Assembly (NCBI RefSeq): GCF_008000775.2
Contig: NZ_CP042905.2
Span: 3,210,001-3,242,000 of the forward strand
Length of the DNA stretch: 32,000 nucleotides
Direction of reading: 5' to 3'
Origin: Promethearchaeum syntrophicum
GTDB taxonomy: Archaea > Asgardarchaeota > Lokiarchaeia > Sigyniarchaeales > Promethearchaeaceae
Shown here: in pieces, positions 1,780 through 32,000 of the stretch
How the letters are laid out: each line of letters begins with the position of its first letter
Numbering within the stretch: position 1 is the first letter of the stretch
Notes under the pieces: generated by a model
The model's database searches: none
What the model saw: only the letters and a program-made list of their open reading frames with translations
Told to the model about the DNA's origin: nothing
Translations under genes and position numbers: made by a program

Positions 1780-1832
1780 AAAAAATCCTCTTACTCCCCA
1801 AAATCCCATTTACTTAAATAATTATATCTAAG

Positions 1833-9833: not shown

Positions 9834-10163
9834 TTATTTTAACGCTTGTCCACAAGTAGGACATTGGTCGATATTCGGCACAAGTTTTTCACCACAACCT
9901 GGACAAAAAGCAATTTCCTTGGTCTCATCAATTGAGGCCGCTTCTGGGGAAGATAGAGTATTGTTAGGTTCATTTAAGGCTTTCTTTTTTTGAATATATG
10001 CCACTGTTTGTTGGATTGCTCCTGAAATTATGCCTATTAGAGGAAAATATGCCCACCATACACCCCACCAGGAGAACGCAAACATTATAACCATAAATAT
10101 TGCTACACCAGTCCAAGATCCAATTAAACCATCAGCAGTTACTGATTTTTCTTTATTTTTCAT
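9834..10163 (-). CDS. Small membrane protein (2 TM) with a C-terminal zinc ribbon
   Basis: Two hydrophobic helices (WTGVAIFMVIMFAFSWWGVWW and YFPLIGIISGAI) are followed by CPGCG...CPTCG. Confidence 0.6.
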   Translation of the reverse strand: MKNKEKSVTADGLIGSWTGVAIFMVIMFAFSWWGVWWAYFPLIGIISGAIQQTVAYIQKKKALNEPNNTLSSPEAASIDETKEIAFCPGCGEKLVPNIDQCPTCGQALK

Positions 10164-17545: not shown

Positions 17546-18409
17546 ATGGCTGAATTCGCAGGAAAAGTTGCACTAGTTGCTGGAAATCTTGGAAGATTTA
17601 AAAATGATAAGTTTAAAATGGGTTTAAGTGGAATAATTGCGCAAAATCTCATAAAAAATAATTGTAAAGTTTGCATTGTCGATACTGATTATAAAATCGC
17701 CAAAGCATGTGCAGAAAAAATTAACAATGAAAACGTAAAAGCCTATGAAGCGGATTTGTTCATCGAATGTGAATCAGAAACCGAAAAATTCGTTGATCAT
17801 AAAGGAAGAGATAAAACCAAAGTCATTTGGACAAAAGCGCCTGCTCATGAATTAGTTCAAAGTATAATTAAAGAATTTCAAAAATTGGATATTCTGATAA
17901 CAAATTTTGATAAATTTGAACAAGCGCGCATAGATCAAACTGATGATGAACTTTATGACTATTTACGTGATCAAAACACACTCCCAGTATTTCATTTGAT
18001 AAGTGCAGTAAGGGACGTAATGTCGAATCAGAGAAAAACAGAAGGAACTTATGGAAAAATCGTTTTCATTACCAATATTGTTGGAAAAGCAGGATTATCC
18101 TTTGCTACTATGTATTCGGCATTTAAAGGTTCTTTAGTAGGATTAACAAAATGTTTGGCAAAAGAATTTGGAACTTTTGCAAATGTGAATTCAGTAGCGA
18201 TTGGTCCTCTATCAGAAAGGAAAATGCAAGGACCAAAAGAACGTATCAAGAAAGATTACTTACTAACACAAACCGCAGTGTGCGATAAACCGCTTTCTTT
18301 CCAGGATATTGCACCTCTTGCAACATTTTTAGCATCGGATGATGCAGTTGCAATAAATGGCCAGGTTATGAATGTTGACGGCGGTTTATGGCTCAAATTA
18401 GAAGCTTAA
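17546..18409 (+). CDS. Divergent short-chain dehydrogenase/reductase-fold protein (module A, gene 1)
   Basis: The Rossmann/SDR layout is present but the motifs are degenerate. The glycine loop AGNLG-RFKNDKFKM-GLSGIIA carries an insertion. TNFD replaces NNAG. ITN sits at the catalytic Ser position. YSAFK (YxxxK) is retained, and the protein ends in NGQ...VDGG. It is about 60 percent identical by eye to ORF 22093-22956. Confidence 0.75.
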   Translation: MAEFAGKVALVAGNLGRFKNDKFKMGLSGIIAQNLIKNNCKVCIVDTDYKIAKACAEKINNENVKAYEADLFIECESETEKFVDHKGRDKTKVIWTKAPAHELVQSIIKEFQKLDILITNFDKFEQARIDQTDDELYDYLRDQNTLPVFHLISAVRDVMSNQRKTEGTYGKIVFITNIVGKAGLSFATMYSAFKGSLVGLTKCLAKEFGTFANVNSVAIGPLSERKMQGPKERIKKDYLLTQTAVCDKPLSFQDIAPLATFLASDDAVAINGQVMNVDGGLWLKLEA

Positions 18410-18456
18410 TGTTATCGATATTAAATATTTTGAATAAAAAAAAGAGTTGAAAAATT

Positions 18457-19317
18457 ATGGCAAGTTCGGTTCAAAAAAATAAGACATCTTTAAATGCAGA
18501 AGAAAGTCAAAGTGGAATAAATTTAATGCACGGATTGTTGGTTGGTAAAACTGCAATAATTACTGGAAGTTCTCGTGGAATTGGTAAAGGTTGCGCTCAA
18601 GTTTTCATCGAACAAGGGGCAAAAATTGTTATTAATGGACGAGATGAGGGTGTTTGTCGAGAAACTTATCAAGATATAACAAAAAATGGAGGGGACGCCA
18701 TTATTTGCCCAGCGGATATTACAAAAAAAGATGAGGTTAATAAAATGATTACAAATACTATCGATGCTTTTGGGCATATTGATATTGTTGTGAATAATGC
18801 GGGAACCAGTAGAGACGCATTGATCCATAAAATGTCGGATAGTTTGTTTAAATTCATTTTTGATTTAAACCTGAAAGGGACTCACAATGTCACACAAGCG
18901 ATTCTTCCGGAGTTTAGAAAAGAAAGCAGAAAGGATGAATTTAAAAAAATAATTAATTTTTCATCTGTGGCCGGAATATCGGGTAATCTTGGGCAAACAA
19001 ACTATGCAATGGCTAAAAGCGGAATTATTGCTTATTCAAAAGCATGCGCACGGGAATTGTCGTTAGACCGTATCAATGTTAATGTTATTGCACCAGGATT
19101 CATAGAAACACGAATGACAGCAGCTAAAAAACCGGGAGATACATTAGGAATGCCTCAATCGGTAAGAAATCTGGCAATTTCTTCAATCCCATTTTCCCGT
19201 GGAGGGGGAGGAGGATTACCACTTCATGTAGGAAATGTCGCATTATTTTTAGCGAGTAATTTATCTGATTGGTTAACAGGTCAAACCTTCACTGTTGATG
19301 GAGGTTCTTATATCTGA
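18457..19317 (+). CDS. Classical SDR, FabG-like 3-oxoacyl reductase family (module A, gene 2)
   Basis: All classical motifs are present: GKTAIITGSSRGIGKG, NNAGTSRD, NFSSVAG, YAMAKSG (YxxxK), APGFIETRMT and TGQTFTVDGG. The start context AGAGTTGAAAAATT-ATGGC resembles those of the neighbouring genes. Confidence 0.9.
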   Translation: MASSVQKNKTSLNAEESQSGINLMHGLLVGKTAIITGSSRGIGKGCAQVFIEQGAKIVINGRDEGVCRETYQDITKNGGDAIICPADITKKDEVNKMITNTIDAFGHIDIVVNNAGTSRDALIHKMSDSLFKFIFDLNLKGTHNVTQAILPEFRKESRKDEFKKIINFSSVAGISGNLGQTNYAMAKSGIIAYSKACARELSLDRINVNVIAPGFIETRMTAAKKPGDTLGMPQSVRNLAISSIPFSRGGGGGLPLHVGNVALFLASNLSDWLTGQTFTVDGGSYI

Positions 19318-19422
19318 TCTCATGGGATCGGGTATAATTTTTTAATATAACGATTATTTCTTGCAAAAGAATAATAAATAAAAAAAAAGTAAAAAAATAT
19401 AAACAAAAAAAAGTGAAAAATT

Positions 19423-19695
19423 ATGGCAAACGTAGTAAAAGGAAAATTCAATGTAAAATTGGAAGAAATGGCAGACACAAAGTTTTCACCAAGAGCAACC
19501 AGTTCAGCTTCTGCACGATTAAGAATCTTGAATGAATCTAATTTGGTATGTTTTGGAAATAGTTGTACTGAAGAAGAACTTGCAAAATGGGAAATGCTTT
19601 GCAACGAAGATACCGTAACCGCACAATTAGATCATATGGCGGGTAAAATGTATGCAAATGGTGTGGAATTTAAGAACGGAAAGTTTGAATTCTAA
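19423..19695 (+). CDS. Hypothetical small protein (90 aa) downstream of SDR module A
   Basis: The composition is protein-like. The start context AGTGAAAAATT-ATGGC is nearly identical to those at 17546 and 18457. The ORF is followed by three T6 runs. The overlapping antisense ORF 19320-19604 is low-complexity and was rejected. Confidence 0.5.
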   Translation: MANVVKGKFNVKLEEMADTKFSPRATSSASARLRILNESNLVCFGNSCTEEELAKWEMLCNEDTVTAQLDHMAGKMYANGVEFKNGKFEF

Positions 19696-19717
19696 TTTTT
19701 TATTTTTTCAATTTTTT
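19696..19717 (+). terminator. Triple oligo-T terminator (T6 A T6 CAA T6)
   Basis: It follows the TAA at 19693-19695 directly. The - strand reading shows A runs only, so it does not serve the convergent GDPD gene. Confidence 0.5.
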
Positions 19718-19722
19718 ATCAA

Positions 19723-21219
19723 TTAATTCAGATTCTTTCTATTTCTTAAGATATACATCAAAGTAGCACCAATTAGACTTAGTATTATCGATATTGTCCA
19801 AATTAAGTTATATCCTTGTGAATTAATTGTCCAAACAGGAGTTTCTAATGGGATTAATAGGTGTAAAGCGTTAGTTTTAACAAAATCCACACCCAAAAAC
19901 CAAACTTGAGAAAATCTTTGTACTGTATCTACCGTCCACACCATTACAGTAATATTTGCATCTTGATACTCTTGAAATTGATCATTTGATAAAGTGTGGA
20001 TTGTATTTAGTAGATCTACTTCTTCTTCTAATAAACTAGCAATGTCTTGAGAAGACGATATTTTAGTCATATTTTTGGTTAAATTTGATGATAGTCTGGT
20101 TATTATTTTTTCATTTAATCCTGAATCATATAATTGATTTATGAGAAGTTCATCATACTGGTTATAAAAAGGATGTTCTTTAGGAGGTTTTCCTGAATCA
20201 ATATCGATATAAAGGTTATAATCTCTGGTTAAATTCAAAACTTCATCTAACGTGGGTATTTTTTCTCCCCTAAAATTTTCTGCTGTTTGTAAATCAACAA
20301 ATTCATCTGCAATTGTTTCGTATGGATCATCATCAGAAAACCAAGACCCAGCATCCAATAATCGTAAATCCGTAATGTTAAACATAGTTGCATCATCATT
20401 TATCCTTTCGGGAAAGATATCTTCGACATTAGTAGTTCTTTTCAAAAGACTATCATGCATTAGGAAAAAAATTCCATCGTAGCTAATAGACACATCAACT
20501 TCCCAACCGATCGCGCCAATTTCGGCGGCCATTTGTCCAGCGATTAAAGTGTTTTCTGGAGCTAAATGTGAAGCGCCTCTGTGAGCCATAAGTTTTGGTT
20601 TAGGAGGGATATCTCCTTGAATGACATTAACTGGAATGAATATGAACGGTAGAATAAATCCAAACAATATTATCATGAGAATTCCAGCTATTATTAAAAG
20701 ATCCTTATTAAAAGTGAATTTCCAACGTTCTTGTTCTTTGATTTCTTCCCAAATTTTTATAATATTGAAAATGATTTTTTGTGATGAAAATGTCATTATT
20801 AATATCAAGAAGAAGAAAATTATGGGACTAATATATTCTAATCCAGTCCGCACTATGCCGATCTCATCTCCACCTATCGAAATAAGTAAAAACAACATGA
20901 AATCCCATATTATAAGAACAGGAATAAGAAATATTCTTGGAAATAATGCAATTTTGTTCAAGTTCTTTGTGATTCTTTTTGGAGACAATCGAATAATTAG
21001 AAATAATCCGTAACCAGTTAGAAAAATTGATACTATAAGAAGTAACATCAGCCATTGAAATTTTAAATTTGTGAATTCACTCACAAAATAATTGATATCG
21101 GACCATAAAGGTCTTACTAATAAAATAATTAACGAGAAGATCAAAATATTTACAAAAAATATCCAAAAAACCGTATACCAAAATCTATATCTCCATAAAA
21201 AACTCTTATCAGATTTCAT
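19723..21219 (-). CDS. Polytopic membrane glycerophosphodiester phosphodiesterase (GDPD domain)
   Basis: The first ~200 aa contain about six hydrophobic helices. The GDPD catalytic motifs follow: MAHRGASHLAPENT, GWEVDVSISYDGIFFLMHDSLLKRTTN and GEKIPTLDEVL. A final C-terminal TM helix is present (IWTISIILSLIGATLMYIL). Confidence 0.85.
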   Translation of the reverse strand: MKSDKSFLWRYRFWYTVFWIFFVNILIFSLIILLVRPLWSDINYFVSEFTNLKFQWLMLLLIVSIFLTGYGLFLIIRLSPKRITKNLNKIALFPRIFLIPVLIIWDFMLFLLISIGGDEIGIVRTGLEYISPIIFFFLILIMTFSSQKIIFNIIKIWEEIKEQERWKFTFNKDLLIIAGILMIILFGFILPFIFIPVNVIQGDIPPKPKLMAHRGASHLAPENTLIAGQMAAEIGAIGWEVDVSISYDGIFFLMHDSLLKRTTNVEDIFPERINDDATMFNITDLRLLDAGSWFSDDDPYETIADEFVDLQTAENFRGEKIPTLDEVLNLTRDYNLYIDIDSGKPPKEHPFYNQYDELLINQLYDSGLNEKIITRLSSNLTKNMTKISSSQDIASLLEEEVDLLNTIHTLSNDQFQEYQDANITVMVWTVDTVQRFSQVWFLGVDFVKTNALHLLIPLETPVWTINSQGYNLIWTISIILSLIGATLMYILRNRKNLN

Positions 21220-21261
21220 TAGTTATTGAAAAATCGAATTAAGTATTGAAAAAGATTTCCG

Positions 21262-21271
21262 AAATAATATA
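21262..21271 (-). promoter_or_regulatory. TATA-like box (TTTTATATTA on the - strand) upstream of the GDPD gene
   Basis: It lies between the T10 tract that follows the FabG-like gene and the GDPD ATG at 21219, about 45 nt upstream of that ATG. The AT-rich context makes this uncertain. Confidence 0.3.
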
Positions 21272-21275
21272 AAAG

Positions 21276-21285
21276 AAAAAAAAAA
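21276..21285 (-). terminator. Oligo-T (T10) terminator after SDR module B
   Basis: A10 on the + strand reads as T10 on the - strand, starting 2 nt after the TAA stop at 21288-21290. Confidence 0.5.
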
Positions 21286-21287
21286 GA

Positions 21288-22085
21288 TTAAATCATTGAG
21301 CCGCCGCCACCAACTAAAAGCTGGCCGGTAATCCAATCACTTAATTCACAAGAGAAAAATAACACAATTTTAGCAATATCTGAAGGTAATCCTCCTACCC
21401 CATCGCGTGAAAATGGAATTGCCCCAATCGCAATATCTCGAATGGCTTGAGGAATACCCAATTTATCTCCAGGTTTTTTCAAAGCAGTCATCCGAGTTTC
21501 TGTGAATCCAGGAGCTATTGCATTAACGCAAACGCGGTTCAAAGAAAACTCTCTAGCACAAGACTTTGTATAAGCAATTAATCCACCTTTTGCAATGGCA
21601 TAGTTTGCTTGACCTACATTTCCAGACACACCAGTTGTTGAAGAAAAGTTCACAATCTTTTTGAATTCATTATTTCGTTCAGCTTTTAAGAATTCTGGTA
21701 GAACTGCTTGAGTACATACATGAGTGCCTTTCATATTAACATCGATTATAAAACGTAATAAGCGATCGTCCATTTTCTGTATCATAGCATCGCGAGAGGT
21801 CCCTGCGTTATTTATTAATATATCGATTTTTCCAAAAGCTGCTATAGTGTCCGCGACCATTTTATTAACTTGTTCTACATTGGTAACATCTGCTGGGCAT
21901 GCTATTGCTTCCCCACCCATTGCCTTAATTTCCTCAACAGTTTCATTACATGGTATAGGATCTATATCATTAATCGTCACTTTACACCCTTGCTCAACGA
22001 ATACTTTTGCAATACCTTTTCCAATTCCTCTTCCGCTTCCAGTGATTATGGCAACTTTTCCTTTTAATAATTCTTTCATTTTCAT
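21288..22085 (-). CDS. Classical SDR, FabG-like 3-oxoacyl reductase family (module B, gene 2)
   Basis: Classical motifs are present: GKVAIITGSGRGIGKG, NNAGTSRD, NFSSTTG, YAIAKGG and APGFTETRMT. It is about 60 percent identical by eye to ORF 18457-19317. The start is placed at ATG 22085 or 22079 because TAGGAGGG, an SD box overlapping the upstream stop codon, lies immediately upstream. The longest ORF (to 22145) would overlap the upstream gene by 53 nt. Confidence 0.9.
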   Translation of the reverse strand: MKMKELLKGKVAIITGSGRGIGKGIAKVFVEQGCKVTINDIDPIPCNETVEEIKAMGGEAIACPADVTNVEQVNKMVADTIAAFGKIDILINNAGTSRDAMIQKMDDRLLRFIIDVNMKGTHVCTQAVLPEFLKAERNNEFKKIVNFSSTTGVSGNVGQANYAIAKGGLIAYTKSCAREFSLNRVCVNAIAPGFTETRMTALKKPGDKLGIPQAIRDIAIGAIPFSRDGVGGLPSDIAKIVLFFSCELSDWITGQLLVGGGGSMI

Positions 22086-22092
22086 TTCCCTC

Positions 22093-22956
22093 CTATTGCT
22101 CCAACTTGAGCCAAAGTCCTCCATCCACAGATATACTTTGTCCATTAATTCCTATCGCATCATCAGAAGCTAATAATAATACCATGGGTGAGACTTTTTC
22201 AAATGTCATTGGTTGATTGCTTAAATCAGATGATGTTACTAAATACGCTCCTTTTACCCGATCTTTTGGACCTTGCATTTTTTTTTCAGATAATGGTCCA
22301 ATTGCAACTGCATTTACATTAGCGAAACGACCAAATTCCCGTGCTAAACTCTTTGTTAATCCGATCATTGCTCCTTTAAATGCTGCCCAAATGGCACCGG
22401 CACTCATTCCTGCTTTTCCTAGCATACTTGTCAAAATGACTACTTTTGCATAAGTTCCTTGAGTTTTCCTTTGAGTTGATAATTGATCACGAACAGCACT
22501 TAGTAAATGAAAAGTTGGCCAAACATTTTGATCTCGTAAATAATCGAATAATTCCATATCAGTTTGATCTACCCTTTTCCGTTCAAATTTATCAAAATTA
22601 GTAATCAGAACATCCAATTTACCGAATTCTGCGACTATATCTTCTACCATTTTTAATGCTGGAAAGTTTTTCCAAACAACTTTGGTTTTATTTTTGCCCC
22701 GATCATCAACATATGCTTCAATTTCGTATGTTCTCTCTGTAAAGAAGTCACATTCGTAAGCTTTGACATTTCCGCCTATTAATTCAGCACATGCTTTAGT
22801 GATCGCAAAATCGGTATCAACTAAACACACTTCTTGAGCGCCTTGTTCAATCATCTGTTTAGCAATTATGCCGCCCAATCCGATTTTAAACGCATCTTTT
22901 TTCATTTTGCCGAGATTTCCACCTACAAGGCAAATTTTTCCATCAAATTTTCCCAT
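22093..22956 (-). CDS. Divergent SDR-fold protein (module B, gene 1)
   Basis: It is a paralog of 17546-18409, with the same inserted glycine loop (GGNLG-KMKKDAFKI-GLGGIIA) and TNFD in place of NNAG. Here the YxxxK Tyr position reads W (IWAAFKG). The start is placed at ATG 22956 because MGKFDGK aligns with MAEFAGK and GTGA lies 7 nt upstream. Confidence 0.75.
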   Translation of the reverse strand: MGKFDGKICLVGGNLGKMKKDAFKIGLGGIIAKQMIEQGAQEVCLVDTDFAITKACAELIGGNVKAYECDFFTERTYEIEAYVDDRGKNKTKVVWKNFPALKMVEDIVAEFGKLDVLITNFDKFERKRVDQTDMELFDYLRDQNVWPTFHLLSAVRDQLSTQRKTQGTYAKVVILTSMLGKAGMSAGAIWAAFKGAMIGLTKSLAREFGRFANVNAVAIGPLSEKKMQGPKDRVKGAYLVTSSDLSNQPMTFEKVSPMVLLLASDDAIGINGQSISVDGGLWLKLEQ

Positions 22957-23120
22957 TTTCATTCACTTTTTTTTAAAAATTAACTCGAAAATTATTCGTA
23001 TTTTAAAAATTCTTATTTCAAATTAGGGTTGATCGTTATAAAAAGATATTTTGAGAATTTTAACTGAAAAGCGGAAATTAACAAAAGTAGTGATTTTTGA
23101 AAATTTGGGTAATAATGAGG

Positions 23121-23131
23121 AAAAAAAAAAA
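23121..23131 (-). terminator. Oligo-T (T11) terminator after the Pro-repeat gene
   Basis: A11 on the + strand reads as T11 on the - strand, about 21 nt downstream of the stop at 23152. Confidence 0.45.
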
Positions 23132-23151
23132 CACAAACTTAAATTAATGAT

Positions 23152-23733
23152 TTATTGTAAATCATATTCCAATTTGTTTCCACAAAATTCGCAATAAACG
23201 GATTCTGATTCCGATAATATCCGCATCATTTCATTTGTAAATGTTCCACCACAATTTGGGCAATGGAGTAATTGTTGGAATTTGATAACGTCATTTCTTA
23301 CGCTTGTTTGAGCCATTACCTTAGTAGGTCTTGCTGGTTGTGCTGGTCTTGCTGGTGGTGCTGGTCTTGCTGGTGGTGCAGGTGCTACAGGCGGTGCGGG
23401 CGGGCGAGTATACCTTCGTGCGGGTCTACTAATCTTTCTTGGACGATCATACCTATAATGATAGTGTCTATGATGTTTTCTCGGAACAAACAAAGATCTA
23501 ATGAAATTGAACAGAATTTTGAAAATCTCAAAAACCAATTGAAAGACTGCTTTCACTATATAGAAAACCAATGAAAACGATCCTACAGTCAAAGCAACTA
23601 GACCAACTAAAATCAAAATTTGATATATTAGTGGTAGAGTATGCATCCAATCTCGGGCTGTGATAAAAAAGTCCCAAAAGGAATCGAAGGTAAAATGATA
23701 CCCGAATATATAAACATCAGTATTTATATCCAT
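23152..23733 (-). CDS. Membrane protein with a Pro/Ala/Arg hexapeptide repeat linker and a C-terminal zinc ribbon
   Basis: Two hydrophobic helices (PLIYQILILVGLVALTVGSFSLVFYIV and neighbouring sequence) are followed by the basic stretch RKHHRHYHYRYDRPRK. The repeat PPAPPVAPAPPARPAPPARPAQPARP comes next. The protein ends in CPNCG...CEFCG. Confidence 0.7.
   Translation of the reverse strand: MDINTDVYIFGYHFTFDSFWDFFITARDWMHTLPLIYQILILVGLVALTVGSFSLVFYIVKAVFQLVFEIFKILFNFIRSLFVPRKHHRHYHYRYDRPRKISRPARRYTRPPAPPVAPAPPARPAPPARPAQPARPTKVMAQTSVRNDVIKFQQLLHCPNCGGTFTNEMMRILSESESVYCEFCGNKLEYDLQ
23327..23398. repeat. Coding 18-nt tandem repeat (3 near-perfect units plus 1 degenerate)
   Basis: The units are GGTCTTGCTGGTTGTGCT, GGTCTTGCTGGTGGTGCT, GGTCTTGCTGGTGGTGCA and GGTGCTACAGGCGGTGCG. 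The repeat forms a GC-rich island in an AT-rich window. It encodes the APPARP-type repeats on the - strand. Confidence 0.9.
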
Positions 23734-23845
23734 ATTTTAATCATCGTAAATTTTTTACTAATTATCATAAGATAAGTATAATATATCAAAAATCCAGAGT
23801 CCATTTTCTGGCAAGTTTTTTTATAATATTATACAACGATTAATT

Positions 23846-24703
23846 ATGAATAAAATTTTAGAAGGAAAAACTGCTTTAATAACAGGATCTAGCCAAGGGA
23901 TAGGAAAGGCTTTGGCAATAGGTTTTGCAAAAATGGGTGCAAATATAATAATTACTGGCCGAAATCAAGAAAATATGGAAAAGACACTCCAACAAGTGGA
24001 AGAACAAGGAGGAAAAGGAATTATTGTTCCGGGAAATGTTCAAAATTATGACGAAGTCCAGAATATTATAACCATCGGAAAGGAAAAATTCACTCATATC
24101 GATATTCTGATTAATAACGCAGGTTTTTCTCGCCTGAAACCCATCCATAAGATGAGAGTGGAGCAATTTGAAGACATCCTTAAAACCAATGTGTTAGGAG
24201 TATATAATTGTTCCCATGCAATTGTTCCTCATATGATGGAAATTGGCGGGGGGACTATTGTGAACACGGGGAGTGCAATCATAAGTTCACCGGGTCCTAG
24301 ATGGAGTGCATATTCAATGTCAAAATCAGCTCTTTTAGGATTTACAGAAAGTTTAGGCATTGAATTGAAGGGAAATAGAATTAATGTTAATACGATAATG
24401 CCGGGTCCTGTTAACACTCCATTATTTCGTATGGGTATGACGGAAGATATGATTAAAGCAATAGGTCCCATGGCACCAGAAGATCTTGTTCCTTATTATG
24501 CCTTTTTTGCAACAGATCAAGGAAAAAAAGTGACCGGTTTAAATGTAGATATGAATATTTGCAAGTCAGTAATGGAAATGGGTGATAATTTGAACCAATG
24601 GTCTGAAATAAAAGAAATTGCACAAGAAAAATTAAAACCTGAATCATTTAAAGCAGCGAAAAAATATAGAAAGCTAATTAATTTCATATTGCAAAATAAT
24701 TGA
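23846..24703 (+). CDS. Classical short-chain dehydrogenase/reductase
   Basis: Classical motifs are present: GKTALITGSSQGIGKA, NNAGFS, GSAI (Ser region), YSMSKSAL (YxxxK) and MPGPVNTP. A ~40-aa C-terminal extension follows. Confidence 0.88.
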   Translation: MNKILEGKTALITGSSQGIGKALAIGFAKMGANIIITGRNQENMEKTLQQVEEQGGKGIIVPGNVQNYDEVQNIITIGKEKFTHIDILINNAGFSRLKPIHKMRVEQFEDILKTNVLGVYNCSHAIVPHMMEIGGGTIVNTGSAIISSPGPRWSAYSMSKSALLGFTESLGIELKGNRINVNTIMPGPVNTPLFRMGMTEDMIKAIGPMAPEDLVPYYAFFATDQGKKVTGLNVDMNICKSVMEMGDNLNQWSEIKEIAQEKLKPESFKAAKKYRKLINFILQNN

Positions 24704-25451: not shown

Positions 25452-26543
25452 TTGACATTAAATTGGTCGAGTAATGTAATTGTTGGTTTTGTGGGATTTA
25501 TTCCATCCTTGATGGCAACTATTTTCACATTTATTCAATATTTTAAAAATAAATACACCCATCTAAAATATTATGGAGGGATGTGGTTAATGTTATCAAT
25601 ATGGATACTATTCCAGGCAATATCAGACCTTTTTTTATCTATTCCGCTCCATTTTCTTGTGTTTTATGCTTTAATCATTTTTTCTTATTTTGTAAATCTT
25701 TCAGTTGATACGATTACGCGAGATTCCATTGATCCCTATAAAATGTTCTTTACGACGATAGCATCAAGTTTTGTTGTTATTCTCTCATTTGATTTTAATA
25801 ATTTTCCAACCTTCAACCCTGATGCAATAATTATTGACCCGGAGGCTGTGACTCCTTACCCTACTATGAATGGAAGTTTTAAGATTGCAGTAATGATTGC
25901 AGCAACTTTATTGATTTCAATAGCGCTCTACGGAAATTTCAAAGTATTAATTCATTCTCCAAAAAAACTTAAAAAATACTCACTACTCAATATTTTGGGA
26001 ACATATTTATGGGGTATTCAACCTGTTTGGATACAAGTGACCCATTTGGAAGAAGTTTATCCTGGACTCGCGACAGGTAGCATGGCTCTTGGCTTAGTAA
26101 TAATTGCTATAATCACTTTAAAAGAACCAAAATTAGCATATATACTCCCTTTTAAAGCATATAGAATTTTGATCCAAAGAACTGATAATGGTGACATTTT
26201 ATTTAAACATGATTGGAACAAACTCGAAGCTCCAGGAAGTGAAGAAATTTTTTCCAGAATGATGCAAGCGGTTAATACAATGTTTGATATGACAATTAAT
26301 AAAGGAAATGTCAAAAATATTAAGTTTGATGAAGCTGAAATTACGTTCAAAGTGAGTAAAGTAGCACCCCTTGTGTGTATTTTAATCTCCAGCGATTATT
26401 CTATTACATTAAGAAATTCGTTTGATACATTTGCGAATGAAGTTTATAAAGATTTCATTAATGATAAAAATAATTTTCTCTCAATGAATAAAAATAATAA
26501 AGGAATGATTATTTTAAAGAAAAATTTTCCATATATTCCATAA
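25452..26543 (+). CDS. 7-TM membrane protein with a C-terminal longin/Roadblock-like domain, paralog 1
   Basis: Seven hydrophobic segments are followed by a ~125-aa soluble tail. It is colinear with the next two genes. The TTG start at 25452 gives (M)TLNWS, matching MVLNWS of the paralogs. Confidence 0.7.
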   Translation: MTLNWSSNVIVGFVGFIPSLMATIFTFIQYFKNKYTHLKYYGGMWLMLSIWILFQAISDLFLSIPLHFLVFYALIIFSYFVNLSVDTITRDSIDPYKMFFTTIASSFVVILSFDFNNFPTFNPDAIIIDPEAVTPYPTMNGSFKIAVMIAATLLISIALYGNFKVLIHSPKKLKKYSLLNILGTYLWGIQPVWIQVTHLEEVYPGLATGSMALGLVIIAIITLKEPKLAYILPFKAYRILIQRTDNGDILFKHDWNKLEAPGSEEIFSRMMQAVNTMFDMTINKGNVKNIKFDEAEITFKVSKVAPLVCILISSDYSITLRNSFDTFANEVYKDFINDKNNFLSMNKNNKGMIILKKNFPYIP

Positions 26544-26699
26544 AATCCTCTTTAAAATTTTTACAATATGAGAAAGAGTGAAAAATATAGAATTTTGCGT
26601 AAAATTAATAAAAATTCCCAAAATTGGAATAATCTTAAATAATATTACAACAAATTGTACAATAATCAATCATTCAAAAATTTTAAACTTGTGAAAAAA

Positions 26700-27788
26700 A
26701 TGGTTCTAAATTGGTCAGCAGGAGTAATAATCGCGTTTATTTCATTAATTCCATCAACAGCCGCAACAGTATTAACACTCATTCAATATTCAAAGGATAA
26801 ATATACTCATTTGAAATATTTAATGGGAATGTGGGCTTGCTTAACTATTTGGATTCTTTTTCAAGCTATCGGGGATTTACTTTTAAGTATTCCCCTTCAC
26901 CTTATTTGTTTCTATTCTTTAATTGGAATGGGCTACTTTGCCAATCTATTTGTTGATTCTATTACGCGCGATTCAGTTGATCTTTTTAAAATGATCATAA
27001 TGACGATTGCATCGAGTGCGGTTTTTATTTTTTCATTTGCAGAGGATGCCGTAATCATTGATCCAGATGCTGTGACTCCATATCCAACAATGCATGGAAA
27101 CTTCCGAATTGCTTCGCTAATTCATATGGTTATTTTTATTTTGGTAGTAGTTTATGGAAATCTAAAAGTATTTCTATATACACCTAAGCATTTAAAATTT
27201 TATTCCTTTTTAAATCTCTTTGGGGCATATTTATGGGGAGTACAACCATTATGGATTCAATTCACTGATTTGGAAAAAATATTTCCGGGATTGGCAACGG
27301 GTAGTATGGCAATTGGGACTTTAATAATTGCTCTTGTTCTTATAAGGGAACCTAAATTAGCATATATTTTACCTTTCAAAGCATACAGAATTCTTATTAT
27401 GGATACAAATAGCGGGATCATTCTCTATAAACATGATTGGAATGAACTCAAAGCCAAAAGTAGTGAAAATATATTTTCAGGAATGTTACAAGCAATTAGC
27501 ACTATGTTTGATCACACCATTAACAAAGGAAATGTTCGCGAAATAAATTTTGATGAAGCAGTTTTAAGCTTAAAAATATCGAAAAAAATACCCATTGCGT
27601 GTATTTTAATTTCAAGTAATATAACTAAAACGTTAAGAACCTCTTTTGAAAATTTTGCAGATGAAGTGTTCCAAGATTATGAAAAATTAACAGAGAATGC
27701 TATAATACAAAAGAACTATGAAAAAGGGAAAAATATTATTGAAAATCATTTTCCTTTTGTCCCGCAACTTGGTCAATTAAAACAATAG
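26700..27788 (+). CDS. 7-TM membrane protein with a C-terminal longin/Roadblock-like domain, paralog 2
   Basis: The start is placed at ATG 26700 (MVLNWS) with GTGAAAAAA immediately upstream. The longest ORF starts at a TTG at 26655. The architecture matches that of paralogs 1 and 3. Confidence 0.75.
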   Translation: MVLNWSAGVIIAFISLIPSTAATVLTLIQYSKDKYTHLKYLMGMWACLTIWILFQAIGDLLLSIPLHLICFYSLIGMGYFANLFVDSITRDSVDLFKMIIMTIASSAVFIFSFAEDAVIIDPDAVTPYPTMHGNFRIASLIHMVIFILVVVYGNLKVFLYTPKHLKFYSFLNLFGAYLWGVQPLWIQFTDLEKIFPGLATGSMAIGTLIIALVLIREPKLAYILPFKAYRILIMDTNSGIILYKHDWNELKAKSSENIFSGMLQAISTMFDHTINKGNVREINFDEAVLSLKISKKIPIACILISSNITKTLRTSFENFADEVFQDYEKLTENAIIQKNYEKGKNIIENHFPFVPQLGQLKQ

Positions 27789-27794
27789 GAAGTA

Positions 27795-27813
27795 TTTTTT
27801 TTGGAATTTTTTT
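27795..27813 (+). terminator. Oligo-T terminator (T8 GGAA T7)
   Basis: It starts 7 nt after the TAG at 27786-27788 and is followed by a 250-nt spacer before paralog 3. Confidence 0.45.
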
Positions 27814-28038
27814 CTAGTATATCAGTTAATTTGTAAGAAGTTGCCTCAGATTTCTTGAAATTCTATACACTGATATCCTACTGTATTTCTTTTTTTAGTT
27901 TACAAAATTGAGTGCAAATTCATATGATTTAAACATATTAGTCTATATGTAGAATCAAAAGTGGTATAACTTTAAATTGGATTACGTTAAAGCTAATATG
28001 AAGATTGAGTTAATAAAATTCATAAGAAGATATAATAT

Positions 28039-29115
28039 ATGGTACTGAATTGGTCAATAGGCGTAATAATTACATTTATTTCCTTGATTCCCTCAAGTTT
28101 AGCTAGTGTACTTACGTTAATTCAATATTTTAAAGATAAATATTCTCATTTAAAGTATTTATCAGGGATTTGGATTTGTTTAACGATCTGGATCTTTTTT
28201 CAAGGAATTTCTGATCTATTATTGTCAATTCCACTCCATATTATTGGGTTTTACTCACTAATGGTTGTGAATTACTTTGCAAATCAATTTGTTGACTCAA
28301 TTACGAGGGAATCTACTGACATCATAAAGATGATTATCGTTTCAATTTCATCTACTGCAATATTAATTTTTTCATTATTACCGAATGCGGTTATTATTAA
28401 AGAAGACGCAGCAACTCCTTTTGTTACATTCACCGGAAATTTCCGATACGCTGCAATGGTTCAGGTTTTTTTGTTTATTTTGATTACAACTTATGGAAAT
28501 TTAAAAGTCTTTCTCCATACTCCAAAACAATTAAAATTTTATTCCTTCTTAAATCTCTTTGGGACCTATTTATACGGTATACAACCATTATGGATTCAAT
28601 TTACTCATTTAGAAGATCGCTTTCCAGGTGCAGCAAACGGAAGTATGGCGATCGGAACTTTATTGATTTCAATGGTGATTATACAACATCCAAAATTAGC
28701 ATATGTCATCCCCTTGAAAGTTTATAGAATTCTCATTATGGATACAAAAAGTGGATTAATTCTCTTTAAACATGATTGGAATGAGCTTAAAGCTAAAAGT
28801 AGTGAAAATATTCTTTCTGGAATGCTACAAGCAGTAAATACAATGTTTGATCAAACAATTAATAAGGGAAATGTTCGTGATATAAAATTCGATCAAGCAA
28901 TTTTAACCTATGAAAAATCTAGAAAAACCTCAATCGCCTGTATAATTATTTCAAACAAGATCTCGAAAACATTGAGAACATCCTTTAGTGATTTTGCAGA
29001 TGATGTATTTAAGGATTATGAAAATACTAAGGAAAATTCCTTAATAAAAAAGAATAATGAAAAATGCGAGATATTGCTTGAACAATATTTTCCATTTGTC
29101 CCAAAATTTGATTAA
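28039..29115 (+). CDS. 7-TM membrane protein with a C-terminal longin/Roadblock-like domain, paralog 3
   Basis: The ATG start gives MVLNWS. Similarity to paralogs 1 and 2 runs the full length. Confidence 0.75.
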   Translation: MVLNWSIGVIITFISLIPSSLASVLTLIQYFKDKYSHLKYLSGIWICLTIWIFFQGISDLLLSIPLHIIGFYSLMVVNYFANQFVDSITRESTDIIKMIIVSISSTAILIFSLLPNAVIIKEDAATPFVTFTGNFRYAAMVQVFLFILITTYGNLKVFLHTPKQLKFYSFLNLFGTYLYGIQPLWIQFTHLEDRFPGAANGSMAIGTLLISMVIIQHPKLAYVIPLKVYRILIMDTKSGLILFKHDWNELKAKSSENILSGMLQAVNTMFDQTINKGNVRDIKFDQAILTYEKSRKTSIACIIISNKISKTLRTSFSDFADDVFKDYENTKENSLIKKNNEKCEILLEQYFPFVPKFD

Positions 29116-29121
29116 TTAACC

Positions 29122-30294
29122 CTATAGAATTTTTTTAATTCGGGAAACAGCGTCTTTGATTCTATCAATAGGCTCTGTAAGCGCAAAACGAATATAACCT
29201 TCACCAAATTCCCCAAAACCAATACCTGGTGTTGTGACTACTCCAACATCTATAAGTTTTTTACAAAATTCCATCGAATCTGGTTCAGGAGATTTTGTCC
29301 ATACATAGAAAGTTGCTTTAGGTTTGTTGGTTTGCCATCCAATGCGGTTTAATCCTTCTACTAAAATATCACGTCGCTTTTCATATATATCCATAGTATC
29401 TTGAACTATCGGAGGTTTTTTTTCAGTTTTATATTCCTGGAAACCTTTAATTGCAGCACGTTGAATGAATCTCGGGATACCTGTATCTATTTGAGCTTTA
29501 ATTTTTTTTAATCCACCAATTATTGATTTTTCACCGAGTGCAAAACCAATTCTCCAACCTGTCATGTTAAAAATCTTTGAACATGAATTGATTTCAATAT
29601 GATTTGTTGTAAATTCTAAAATAGAAGGAGCGATATAATCATCGAAGGTAAATTCTGAATATGGATTATCATAAATTATTAGGATATTGTTCTCATCTGC
29701 AAACTCGATTGCTTCTTTTAGGAAATTTTGGGTAATTATTCCACCCGTAGGATTGTTCGGATAATTTAAAAACATCAGTTTGCTTTTTTTTATAATTTCC
29801 ATAGGAATATAACTCAAATCTGGTAAAAAATTATTTTCTTCTTTTAATGGCATCATGTAAGGAACGGCCCCATTAAGAATTGTGGCACCATTCTCATATA
29901 CGGGATAACTAGGATTAGGAATTAAAATTACTTCCCCGGGATTTACGAATGCTCTAGCGACATTTGCAAGTCCTTCTTTTGCCCCTATCAACCCAATTAT
30001 TTGAGAACTCGGCTTTAAATCTACTTTGAACCTTATTTTATACCATTCTGCGATTGCTTCCAGAAAATCTGGCTCTCCTTGCCTTGTCGGATAATTATGA
30101 TTAGTGGGCTTATTAACTTCTTCAATTAGAGCATCAACAATTAATTGTGGAGTTGGGATATCAGGATCTCCCACATCCATAGAAATCAGATCAACGCCCT
30201 CTTTTTTCTTTCTTCGCTTTATTTCTGCGATTTCGGCAAATATGTAAGGAGGGAGTTTGTTTAATCGGTCGGAATATTTTAGATTTAAGGGCAT
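29122..30294 (-). CDS. PLP-dependent aminotransferase, class I/II (AspC/DapL-like)
   Basis: Family motifs are present: LPPYIFAEI, DVGDPDIPTP, NYPNNPTG, and the PLP-lysine motif NSCSKIFNMTGWRIG. Substrate specificity cannot be called by eye. Confidence 0.85.
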   Translation of the reverse strand: MPLNLKYSDRLNKLPPYIFAEIAEIKRRKKKEGVDLISMDVGDPDIPTPQLIVDALIEEVNKPTNHNYPTRQGEPDFLEAIAEWYKIRFKVDLKPSSQIIGLIGAKEGLANVARAFVNPGEVILIPNPSYPVYENGATILNGAVPYMMPLKEENNFLPDLSYIPMEIIKKSKLMFLNYPNNPTGGIITQNFLKEAIEFADENNILIIYDNPYSEFTFDDYIAPSILEFTTNHIEINSCSKIFNMTGWRIGFALGEKSIIGGLKKIKAQIDTGIPRFIQRAAIKGFQEYKTEKKPPIVQDTMDIYEKRRDILVEGLNRIGWQTNKPKATFYVWTKSPEPDSMEFCKKLIDVGVVTTPGIGFGEFGEGYIRFALTEPIDRIKDAVSRIKKIL

Positions 30295-30360
30295 TAAATT
30301 TTCTACTCCAAATTATTGATTAAGTTATTATTATTTAATTCTCAAAATAAAAAAAAAATA

Positions 30361-31554
30361 TTAAACACAAAGAAGATCTTCTTTATTGTTTAACGCTTCA
30401 ATTAGTAAGGGAATTACTTTATGCAGATCTCCAACTATTCCGTAATTGGCTACTGTAAAAATCGGAGCATTGGGATCTGAGTTAATCGCAATAATCACTT
30501 TACTGCTTTTCATTCCCACAAGATGTTGAATTGTGCCAGAAATGCCGCACGCTATATAGATTTTCGGCGATACAGTGGTACCACTTTGCCCTACTTGGTG
30601 ATTTTTCCCAATCCACCCTAACTCTATGGGAACACGACTTGCTCCAACTGTTCCATGAAAAACATCAGCTAAGTCTTGAATCAATTTGAAATTTTCTTTA
30701 CTTCCAACACCTCTACCACCCGAAACAACAATATCCGCTTCGCATAAAGGGATCCCATCTTCACATACAGCGCTGAGAACTTCTTTAACCCACACACGTA
30801 AGCCTTTTTCATCTATTTTTACCAGTACTTCAATTATCTCGGCATTCTCACTATGATCTTCACATAAATTCTTCATTACATTCGGTCGAACAGTTGCCAT
30901 TTGAGGCCGGGTTTCAAAATCTACTATATCTGCCATAATATTTCCTCCGAATGCTGGACGGGTCTGCAGTAATTTATTTTCATAAATAGAAAGCCCAGTA
31001 CAATCTGCTGTTAGACCCAATTTTAAAATAGAAGCTACTCTTGGAGCTAGATCCCTTCCTTTAATTGTTGCGGGAAATAATACTATGTTTGGATTATAAT
31101 TTGAAATAAGTCCAATAACTATGTTCGCATATGTATCGGTGTAATATTGAAGTAGATTTTCATCTTCTGCTATAAATATTTTATCAGCACCATGAATGGC
31201 TAAATCTTTGGCGAATTTTTTAACATCACTACCAATTAAAACAAGCCCAACTTTCTGTTTTAATTCGAAAGCAAGATCTTTCGCCTTGCCAAGCAATTCA
31301 TAGGTGACAGTTCGAATTTTACCGTCCTTTACTTCAGCTACAACCCAGACATCTTGAAATTTAGACAAATCCACATTTTTTGCTTTTCTGCGCTCTAAAT
31401 CGATGGCATTGAAATTACAAACTTGAACACAAGCACCACATAAAGTACATGCTTCATTAATAACCGCTTTTTTATCTATGAGTGTTATTGCACCAAAAGG
31501 ACACGCTTTAACACACAAACCGCACCCAGTACAATTATCATTGACATTTATCAT
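30361..31554 (-). CDS. etfA: Electron transfer flavoprotein alpha subunit with an N-terminal 2x[4Fe-4S] ferredoxin domain
   Basis: Two CxxCxxCxxxCP motifs are present (CTGCGLCVKACP and CTLCGACVQVCN). The EtfA core follows: VVSGGRGVG, GASRVPIELGW, QVGQSGTTVSPKIYIACGISGTIQHLVGM and IIAINSDPNAPIF. Confidence 0.92.
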   Translation of the reverse strand: MINVNDNCTGCGLCVKACPFGAITLIDKKAVINEACTLCGACVQVCNFNAIDLERRKAKNVDLSKFQDVWVVAEVKDGKIRTVTYELLGKAKDLAFELKQKVGLVLIGSDVKKFAKDLAIHGADKIFIAEDENLLQYYTDTYANIVIGLISNYNPNIVLFPATIKGRDLAPRVASILKLGLTADCTGLSIYENKLLQTRPAFGGNIMADIVDFETRPQMATVRPNVMKNLCEDHSENAEIIEVLVKIDEKGLRVWVKEVLSAVCEDGIPLCEADIVVSGGRGVGSKENFKLIQDLADVFHGTVGASRVPIELGWIGKNHQVGQSGTTVSPKIYIACGISGTIQHLVGMKSSKVIIAINSDPNAPIFTVANYGIVGDLHKVIPLLIEALNNKEDLLCV

Positions 31555-31555
31555 T

Positions 31556-32000
31556 CTATATCACCAAGTCCTCCGATAATTTGTCAAATAAGTTTTTCAC
31601 TGCAATTTCTGGCTCATCCGCATATATTACACCCTTTTCATTGATAGGAGGAGGATATACTTTGATTACTTGTGTAAGGGACCCTTCAAGTCCGAAATTT
31701 TCTTTGTCAACATCAAAATCGGCTACGGTCCAAGTTTCTAAAGGTTTCTTTTTAGCCATTAAAATAGCGCGCATAGCGGGATTAGAAGGTTCAAATGATG
31801 AAGGTGTAATTCCCGCAATTAAAACGGGCAATTTTGCTTCCACAATGTTATAACCATCATCTGTAACTGTTTTTGCTTCTAATCGTTTTCCTTCAATTTT
31901 TAGAACCTCTTCAACATAGGTTATTTGAGGTATACCAAGCTGTCCCGCAATTTCAGGACCAACTTGAGCAGTATCTCCATCAATCGCTTGAAGTCCTGCA
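31556..32000 (-). CDS. etfB: Electron transfer flavoprotein beta subunit (partial; N terminus lies outside the window)
   Basis: The frame stays open to the window edge. My translation of 31844-31999 gives AGLQAIDGDTAQVGPEIAGQLGIPQITYVEEV..., the canonical EtfB motif. The M of the track ORF at 31843 is an internal GTG. The stop abuts the etfA start. Confidence 0.9.
   Translation of the reverse strand, partial: AGLQAIDGDTAQVGPEIAGQLGIPQITYVEEVLKIEGKRLEAKTVTDDGYNIVEAKLPVLIAGITPSSFEPSNPAMRAILMAKKKPLETWTVADFDVDKENFGLEGSLTQVIKVYPPPINEKGVIYADEPEIAVKNLFDKLSEDLVI

Follow-up and report, generated by a model that had tools for sequence, protein, structure and literature searches.

Longin and Roadblock domains have a common core but distinct topologies (PMC10933270), and their dimers act as platforms for small GTPases and are abundant in Asgard archaea (PMC10933270, PMC4917890). 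According to the parts of three accounts that we draw on (Klinger 2016, as cited in PMC4917890; the Liu 2021 preprint, 10.1101/2020.10.19.343400; and Tran 2024, PMC10933270), the described Asgard longin and Roadblock domains occur alone or fused to GTPases, to TRAPPC3 or to two-component domains, and lineage-specific expansions and unusual fusions are typical of these archaea. Here, we describe three tandem genes of Promethearchaeum syntrophicum MK-D1 (an Asgard archaeon of the Lokiarchaeia), DSAG12_03429, DSAG12_03430 and DSAG12_03431, hereafter paralogs 1, 2 and 3, which lie on the + strand of the window, i.e., the whole stretch of 32,000 nucleotides that was analysed (positions 3,210,001 to 3,242,000 of contig NZ_CP042905.2). 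We consider it very probable that each gene encodes seven transmembrane (TM) helices with the N-terminus outside and the C-terminus inside (N-out/C-in), a conserved linker and a cytoplasmic longin domain of the TRAPP/sybindin type, and that this 7TM-longin architecture defines a large family, of which all named members are Asgard proteins.

The three genes, each an open reading frame (ORF), and their parts are located in the window as follows:

25452..26543, + strand: paralog 1 (DSAG12_03429), 363 aa, TTG start, exact match to QEE17592.1
25452-26126, 26127-26540 and 26541-26543, + strand: 7TM module, predicted longin tail and stop codon of paralog 1, the boundary being set at the PKLAY motif
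26700..27788, + strand: paralog 2 (DSAG12_03430), 362 aa, ATG start, 100% identical to P0001/QEE17593.1
26700-27350, 27351-27785 and 27786-27788, + strand: 7TM module, predicted longin tail and stop codon of paralog 2
28039..29115, + strand: paralog 3 (DSAG12_03431), 358 aa, ATG start, P0019/QEE17594.1
28039-28689, 28690-29112 and 29113-29115, + strand: 7TM module, predicted longin tail and stop codon of paralog 3, with the boundary taken from the PKLAY motif

Paralog 2 is annotated from the ATG at 26700 (MVLNWS), rather than as the longer TTG ORF from 26655, and the family hidden Markov model (HMM) matches paralog 1 with an E-value of 2e-163. An initial annotation of the window had described three consecutive same-strand genes of 358-363 aa that are paralogous over their full length; the ORFs and an end-to-end alignment with pairwise identities of 54-68% bear this out, and each sequence block quoted there as shared is found in the alignment. 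The spacers between the genes, 156 and 250 bp in length, are AT-rich and contain T-runs, suggesting that each gene is probably transcribed separately. The synonymous divergence (dS) over whole genes is saturated at 1.3-2.2 and the ratio of nonsynonymous to synonymous divergence (dN/dS) is 0.16-0.19 (0.14-0.17 for the membrane part, 0.16-0.27 for the tail), and the paralogs are therefore old duplicates under purifying selection in both domains. Purifying selection on the tail, rather than a very recent copy, had already been proposed from the stretch HDWNELKAKSSENI, which is identical in paralogs 2 and 3 and whose DNA differences had been read as synonymous; indeed, 4 of its 42 nt differ, every one synonymously. 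Since orthologs of each single paralog are present in related metagenome-assembled genomes, the triplication is older than those lineages.

The membrane module was investigated with an AlphaFold2 model of full-length paralog 2, built from a 42-sequence alignment, which has a mean predicted local distance difference test score (pLDDT) of 83.7 and a predicted template modelling score (pTM) of 0.74. In agreement with the seven hydrophobic helices and soluble tail of the initial annotation, the model contains seven predicted TM helices (residues 7-33, 36-61, 64-89, 95-111, 133-160, 163-188 and 198-216; mostly pLDDT 85-97), with a small hairpin in the TM4-TM5 loop and a short helix (218-222) past TM7, followed by a tail of ~145 aa. 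Among 42 family members, the loops after TM1, TM3, TM5 and TM7 carry on average 2.9, 2.2, 2.5 and 2.9 lysine plus arginine residues, respectively, whereas the N-terminus and the remaining loops average 0, 0.1, 1.2 and 0.7. By the positive-inside rule, this bias predicts that the N-terminus is outside and that the tail is cytoplasmic, the latter being a point which the annotation had left to a topology prediction.

Pfam and NCBIfam scans of the three paralogs gave no significant match, sequence-profile searches of the PDB returned no match, whether the tail or the whole family was the query, and the PADLOC anti-phage defence models gave no match of the three paralogs at E ≤ 0.01. Weak hints of a tie to prokaryotic receptor modules came from sub-threshold matches to HisKA_7TM or 7TMR-DISM_7TM in 5 of 157 family members, with best E-values of 4.9e-4 and 2.6e-3, respectively, all short of the Pfam gathering threshold. 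In UniProt, paralog 2 is named 'Histidine kinase N-terminal 7TM region domain-containing protein' and its two sister paralogs are 'Uncharacterized'. Despite this name, paralog 2 has no HisKA_7TM match even at E ≤ 10 in the Pfam-A copy used, which suggests that the name stems from a HisKA_7TM match in another pipeline.

A Foldseek search of the full model against the PDB returned weak matches to seven-helix receptors, i.e., mGlu2/5, CCR5, NTSR1 and one cryorhodopsin, with E-values of 2e-3 to 3e-2, TM-scores of at most 0.40 and root-mean-square deviations (rmsd) of 6-9 Å. At the level of the model, such values show a generic seven-helix bundle rather than homology. Of the conceptual likening of these proteins to G-protein-coupled receptors (GPCRs) in the initial annotation, the seven helices and the predicted N-out/C-in topology stand, and no Pfam 7tm match was found; 'GPCR-like' holds only as a topological analogy. 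The same weak matches, together with the topology, are what could speak for a relative of the microbial rhodopsins working with light and retinal, or for a true homolog of eukaryotic GPCRs; with fits as poor as these, and no match to a Pfam rhodopsin or GPCR family, we regard the chance of either as almost negligible. A retinal rhodopsin was ruled out, as helix 7 of all three paralogs contains no lysine, the only one in the stretch inspected, K224 of paralog 1, being at its cytoplasmic end.

The tail shows the order strand-strand-helix-strand-strand-strand-helix-helix in both the full-length and the tail-only AlphaFold2 models, the same order that had earlier been read from the sequence. The tail-only model of paralog 2 has a mean pLDDT of 77 and a pTM of 0.76, and in both models the tail lacks an N-terminal helix, strand 1 following directly after the linker, and possesses two C-terminal helices. 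When the tail model was compared with the PDB by Foldseek, longin proteins ranked first, with sedlin (2j3w_A) at an E-value of 1.4e-4, Bet5/Trs23 at TM-scores of 0.59-0.62, and further matches to TRAPPC2L, zeta-COP, AP sigma, Sec22b, Ykt6, Fuzzy-Inturned and Mon1-Ccz1. Roadblock structures, namely LAMTOR2/3, Rag C-terminal domains, a Streptomyces LC7 protein and 3kye, ranked lower, with E-values of 5e-3 to 8e-3 and TM-scores of 0.46-0.52. The top 50 matches comprise only longins and then Roadblock proteins, with no PAS or GAF domain among them, an unrelated fold of that kind having been named as one that would speak against the initial proposal.

Sequence profiles point in the same direction at a lower level. 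The three paralogs have no Pfam longin family match even at E ≤ 10; among the 157 family members, however, sub-threshold matches were found to Fuz_longin_1 (9.6e-4, 4 members), Intu_longin_1 (0.05) and Sybindin (0.11), and none has a Pfam match to Robl_LC7. A stand-alone 150-aa homolog of the tail, encoded on the - strand of a Helarchaeota locus (L004:3272-3724), was recovered by hmmsearch (E 6e-13) and by hhalign (95%, E 3.5e-8), and it matches Pfam Sybindin with an E-value of 4e-5 and 24.1 bits, the cut-off being 25. This gene sits 6 kb from a tandem pair of family members, and another stand-alone, soluble 150-aa tail homolog is encoded at L027:330-782. A third tail-only call, P0220 (161 aa, L029:1558-3666), is preceded on the same strand by a 281-aa ORF and a 0.8-kb gap, and could come from a family gene that is split or frameshifted instead of being genuinely soluble.

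The initial annotation had left the tail among longin, sigma-adaptin and Roadblock/LC7 domains. Because the models lack an N-terminal helix and have two C-terminal helices, and because the Pfam hints are all to longin families, we assign the modelled tail, with good but not full confidence, to the longins (TRAPP/sybindin-like), and the Roadblock part of that proposal falls away. For the tail to be a Roadblock/LC7 (MglB-like) domain or another profilin-like fold, the Roadblock structures in the fold search and the core common to both folds would have to outweigh the better E-values and TM-scores of the longins and the topology of the models, which makes this assignment very improbable.

The conservation pattern was analysed in 132 diverse family sequences, for which counts and top-residue frequencies are given below with the residue numbers of paralog 2. 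Five motifs stand out or bear on the topology:

26709..26717 (also 25461-25469 and 28048-28056), + strand: N-terminal N-W-S sequon, residues 4-6 (N4 in 75/132, S/T6 in 85/132)
26955..26990 (also 25707-25742 and 28294-28329), + strand: TM3-TM4 loop D-x-I-T-R-D/E-x-x-D-x-x-K, residues 86-97, predicted cytoplasmic
27183..27197 (also 25959-25973 and 28522-28536), + strand: TM5-TM6 loop P-K-x-L-K, residues 162-166, predicted cytoplasmic (P162 is the top residue in 95%)
27351..27380, + strand: linker P-K-L-A-Y-I-L-P-F-K, residues 218-227, joining helix 7 to longin strand 1
27750..27764 (also 26526-26540 and 29089-29103), + strand: C-terminal F-P-F-V-P, residues 351-355, nearly invariant

The sequon is a candidate N-glycosylation site on the outside face and is consistent with an outside N-terminus. 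Conservation peaks at the cytoplasmic end of TM3 and the start of TM4, at the TM5-TM6 turn, in the linker past TM7, and in the longin core with its terminal F-x-F-x-P (F351 1.00, F353 0.91, P355 0.92). The TM3-TM4 loop motif is the best-conserved portion of the membrane module (D86 in 123/132, R90 in 95/132, E/D91 in 122/132, D94 in 94/132 and K97 in 122/132), while the linker, with a mean top-residue frequency of 0.72 (P218 0.95, L224 0.95, P225 0.93, F226 0.89), is the highest multi-residue segment, the two-residue TM5-TM6 turn reaching 0.78. The helices and outer loops are least conserved, with mean top-residue frequencies of 0.31-0.38. In a receptor family whose members share one output, an inside face that is conserved and an outside that varies would be expected.

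Polar residues inside the helices had been taken in the initial annotation as an argument for a ligand or ion site rather than a passive anchor. This argument does not survive the wider comparison, in which each of Q55, D59, H67, W179, Q182, W185 and Q187 is the majority residue in at most 23 of the 132 sequences; as judged from these sequences, they are a trait of a close Promethearchaeum subgroup only. The same residues bear on the reading of the 7TM module as a transporter or channel, which would move an ion or small molecule and be gated by the longin domain through binding of a metabolite or protein, in the manner of PAS or GAF domains. The longin fold is indeed grouped with PAS and GAF in one broad fold class (PMC4917890), the subgroup has its polar residues in helices 2, 3 and 6, and a Zip-like transporter gene adjoins a family member in one context, seen at two syntenic loci (L031:9104-10066 and L033:1802-2764; a 320-aa protein with a faint Zip (zinc/iron permease) match, directly downstream on the opposite strand). 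However, these polar residues are not conserved across the family, and a conserved permeation path would lead one to expect the reverse of the pattern seen, in which the inside face is conserved and the core varies. Nor was any known transporter or enzyme matched by the 7TM part in the PDB, Pfam or NCBIfam, where an end-to-end match would, by the terms of the initial annotation, have spoken against a receptor-like module. We thus consider a transporter or channel decidedly unlikely.

An exhaustive profile search retrieved 1143 cluster representatives (50% identity) at E ≤ 1e-3, and 447 at E ≤ 1e-30, nearly all of which are 350-375 aa long and matched end to end. Every named member is an Asgard 'hypothetical protein', and the lineages named are Promethearchaeum, Lokiarchaeia, Helarchaeota, Hodarchaeota, Thorarchaeota and Sigynarchaeum. 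A search with a profile restricted to the 7TM part recovers nothing but the 7TM-longin architecture, and no 7TM module with another output domain was found within the reach of the word-indexed search. A few longer members carry C-terminal additions, i.e., an alpha/beta hydrolase domain in P0174, and, in P0182, P0205 and P0195, two CxxC pairs, likely a zinc ribbon, followed by ~170 aa that have no Pfam match. Tandem pairs recur in the window and at L014, L002, L004 and L030, and in one Helarchaeota genome three loci together carry at least four full-length copies and a fragment at a contig end; growth of the family by repeated local tandem duplication is well supported. Beside the family member P0059, two genes on the - strand (L013:7633-9832 and L013:12257-13213), of 358 and 365 aa and called divergently oriented, encode very distant paralogs with multiple TM helices and a longin tail (hhalign ~80%, E 1e-5; Sybindin E 0.015), so that the superfamily of membrane-anchored longins extends beyond what the family HMM picks up. 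The literature gave no description of a 7TM-longin fusion, in line with the remark in the initial annotation that the architecture was not recognised as described, although the supplementary tables of asCOG were outside our reach and could hold a prior tabulation. As judged from sequence, the family joins two known modules in a new and abundant combination, the function of which is predicted only.

Gene neighbourhoods were surveyed for GTPase, Roadblock and longin partners at 10 genome loci, at 13 metagenome loci, mostly short, and on 9 further contigs, the initial annotation having looked to small GTPase genes or further Roadblock/longin genes near homologs as a check of its proposal; no neighbour proved recurrent. 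The 32-kb window contains no small GTPase gene. A small GTPase gene lies within three genes in 3 of ~16 independent contexts: at L030, a Ras/Arf/RagA-like gene is 28 bp away on the opposite strand; at L013, a Roadblock-Ras fusion GTPase is two genes downstream; and at L007, a Ras-like gene is nearby. Among 83 neighbour ORFs, 2 are Ras-like (2.4%), compared with a genome baseline of ~2%, for which the ~109 small GTPases in the 5381 genes of Lokiarchaeum were used (PMC4917890). The expected co-occurrence was thus not seen as an enrichment (binomial P ~0.3 for the contexts), in a test of low power, because GTPase genes of MK-D1 generally lie outside operons with longin or Roadblock genes (PMC10933270). 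The counts are at about chance level and support a GTPase link neither way. Likewise, no Bet3/V4R partner or Rab-like GTPase is consistently near family members.

We propose that the seven-helix bundle is a membrane-embedded receptor or anchor and that the longin domain is its output. Two tails would probably pair, as homodimers or as heterodimers of co-located paralogs, because solved longin and Roadblock domains work as dimeric platforms. We infer that the cytoplasmic loops (D86..R90..K97 and P162-K-x-L-K) and the linker couple the state of the helix bundle, where the 7TM module senses, to the longin platform, which would act on a soluble partner at the membrane, by recruitment or by regulation. 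Most likely, this partner would be an Asgard small GTPase, or else a further longin, Roadblock or V4R protein. We put the probability of this explanation as a whole, the best that we can offer, at roughly 0.4. While the architecture is the firm part of it, the mechanism, a membrane-embedded receptor or anchor with a longin output, is advanced tentatively. A receptor-to-GTPase reading is plausible but unproven, and its most specific form, a single-chain receptor in which a seven-helix sensor directly drives a longin platform and the platform either brings a Ras-superfamily GTPase to the membrane or promotes its nucleotide exchange there, is in our estimation unlikely. If it were true, the family would be a working analogue, older than eukaryotes, both of signalling from GPCRs to G proteins and of the eukaryotic logic that leads from the membrane via longins to Rab/Rag GTPases, and the diversified outer halves would constitute a repertoire of ligand specificities.

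Several observations weigh against the proposed explanation. On the side of the tail, no Pfam longin model was reached at the gathering threshold, and hhalign of the tail profile with an approximate sequence of human sedlin gave a probability of 1%. As the sequence profiles fall short of threshold, the longin call rests on the model and on Foldseek, the model being of moderate confidence (pLDDT 54-92) and the TM-scores 0.55-0.62; in addition, some of the structural matches, i.e., SNAREs and adaptor sigma subunits, are longins that do not act on GTPases. On the side of the membrane part and the genes, the 132 sequences show no family-wide polar pocket, GTPase genes are not enriched, and no gene family recurs among the 83 neighbour ORFs. 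The idea that the tandem copies form an ancient obligatory pair was rejected, since the pairs in different lineages are independent duplications.

Some of these points are equally those that would favour a membrane scaffold involved neither in sensing nor with GTPases, in which the helices would serve only to anchor the protein or to shape the membrane and the longin domain would serve other protein contacts, e.g., in holding cytoskeletal or ESCRT-type machinery at the membrane. The chance-level neighbourhoods, the helices that hold no polar site conserved family-wide, and the SNARE and adaptor longins without GTPase regulation among the matches would all suit such a role. However, passive anchors rarely need seven helices with strongly conserved cytoplasmic loop motifs, and the 7TM module, which the profile search never recovered lacking its tail or joined to a different domain, speaks for a functional unit. 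Furthermore, the best structural and Pfam hints are to longins of the guanine nucleotide exchange factor (GEF) type (TRAPP, Fuz/Mon1 and Intu/Ccz1). A scaffold is therefore possible, yet somewhat unlikely.

The receptor or anchor with a longin output addresses a question raised by the abundance of small GTPases, longins and Roadblock proteins in Asgard archaea, namely what their targets are and by which route they reach the membrane. To our knowledge, Asgard GTPases do not have the lipid anchors of their eukaryotic counterparts. Gene order does not pair Asgard GTPases with their regulators (PMC10933270), and the 7TM-longin family is a concrete candidate for the missing membrane link of these regulators, for which the cultured MK-D1 supplies a defined set of proteins for partner tests. 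Should the tails bind GTPases, small GTPases would have come under receptor-like control before eukaryotes arose; if they do not, there is still an unannotated family of more than 1000 sequence clusters that deserves a name.

The remainder of the window contains other genes. The neighbours at 17546-24703 and 29122-31843 encode five short-chain dehydrogenases/reductases, a glycerophosphodiester phosphodiesterase, a metallophosphoesterase, an aminotransferase and electron-transfer flavoprotein subunits, and the same gene order recurs on a related metagenome contig (L014), where an acyl-CoA dehydrogenase gene is present in addition. The block looks like lipid or fatty-acid metabolism and has no evident functional tie to the 7TM-longin genes. 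On the - strand, 23152-23733 encodes a protein of 193 aa with a hydrophobic N-terminal part, a basic His/Arg/Tyr-rich stretch, the proline-rich repeat PAPPARPAPPARPAQPARP and a C-terminal zinc ribbon (weak match to the TFIIB zinc ribbon), and a similar small protein with a TM segment and a zinc ribbon is encoded at 9834-10163. A 591-aa fusion of Kae1 (TsaD) with a Bud32/RIO-type kinase lies at 34-1809 (- strand), adjoined by the genes for ribosomal protein S24e and a DUF359 protein.

In comparison with known systems, the TRAPP longins (Bet5/TRAPPC1 and Trs23/TRAPPC4, which correspond to Pfam Sybindin, and sedlin/TRAPPC2) are the best structural matches of the tail and have the same topology of strands and helices, and the soluble Asgard tail homolog falls just under the Sybindin threshold. 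However, the TRAPP longins are soluble and form part of a Rab GEF composed of several proteins, whereas the longin domain here is covalently joined to a seven-helix module. The soluble longin and Roadblock proteins and GTPase fusions of Asgard archaea come from the same lineage, and their domains from the same superfamily as the tail; among the architectures described in the accounts introduced at the outset, we found no mention of a 7TM fusion in the texts that we draw on. The HisKA_7TM (PF16927) and 7TMR-DISM_7TM (PF07695) modules likewise have a cytoplasmic domain behind their seven helices, where the signalling output is located. In those modules the output is a kinase, a cyclase or a phosphodiesterase, whereas here it is a longin domain, and the 7TM module of this family is never seen with those other domains.

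The closest working prokaryotic analogue of the proposed mechanism is the conservon (CvnA-D/MfpA-E), in which a membrane sensor is combined with a protein of the Roadblock superfamily and a Ras-like GTPase. In Streptomyces, the conservon CvnA-D reportedly links a membrane sensor kinase-like protein, a Roadblock protein and a small GTPase, as Komatsu et al. are said to have described in 2006. In Mycobacterium, the corresponding MfpA-E system comprises an Mfp GTPase and its GTPase-activating protein (GAP) (PMC9769811). We note three differences from the 7TM-longin proteins. First, the conservon is a multi-gene operon of separate proteins, whereas here a single polypeptide is found. Second, the conservon uses a Roadblock domain, whereas the tail is a predicted longin. 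Third, there is no GTPase at a fixed position; the conserved placement of a GTPase gene beside the platform gene, which is a trait of MglA-MglB, the conservon and the Asgard LAMTOR1-Rab-DENN operon, was not found in the contexts surveyed.

Among eukaryotes, SLC38A9-Ragulator and GPR155/LYCHOS-GATOR1 are membrane sensors that act via longin/Roadblock-Rag GTPase complexes, and GPCRs are exchange factors for G-alpha. These sensors have no detectable homology with the 7TM-longin proteins, and their longin and Roadblock parts are separate proteins. The concept would be the same, in that a multi-pass sensor controls a GTPase via a cytoplasmic platform, and GPCRs share with the 7TM-longin proteins the seven-helix, N-out/C-in arrangement that is predicted here.

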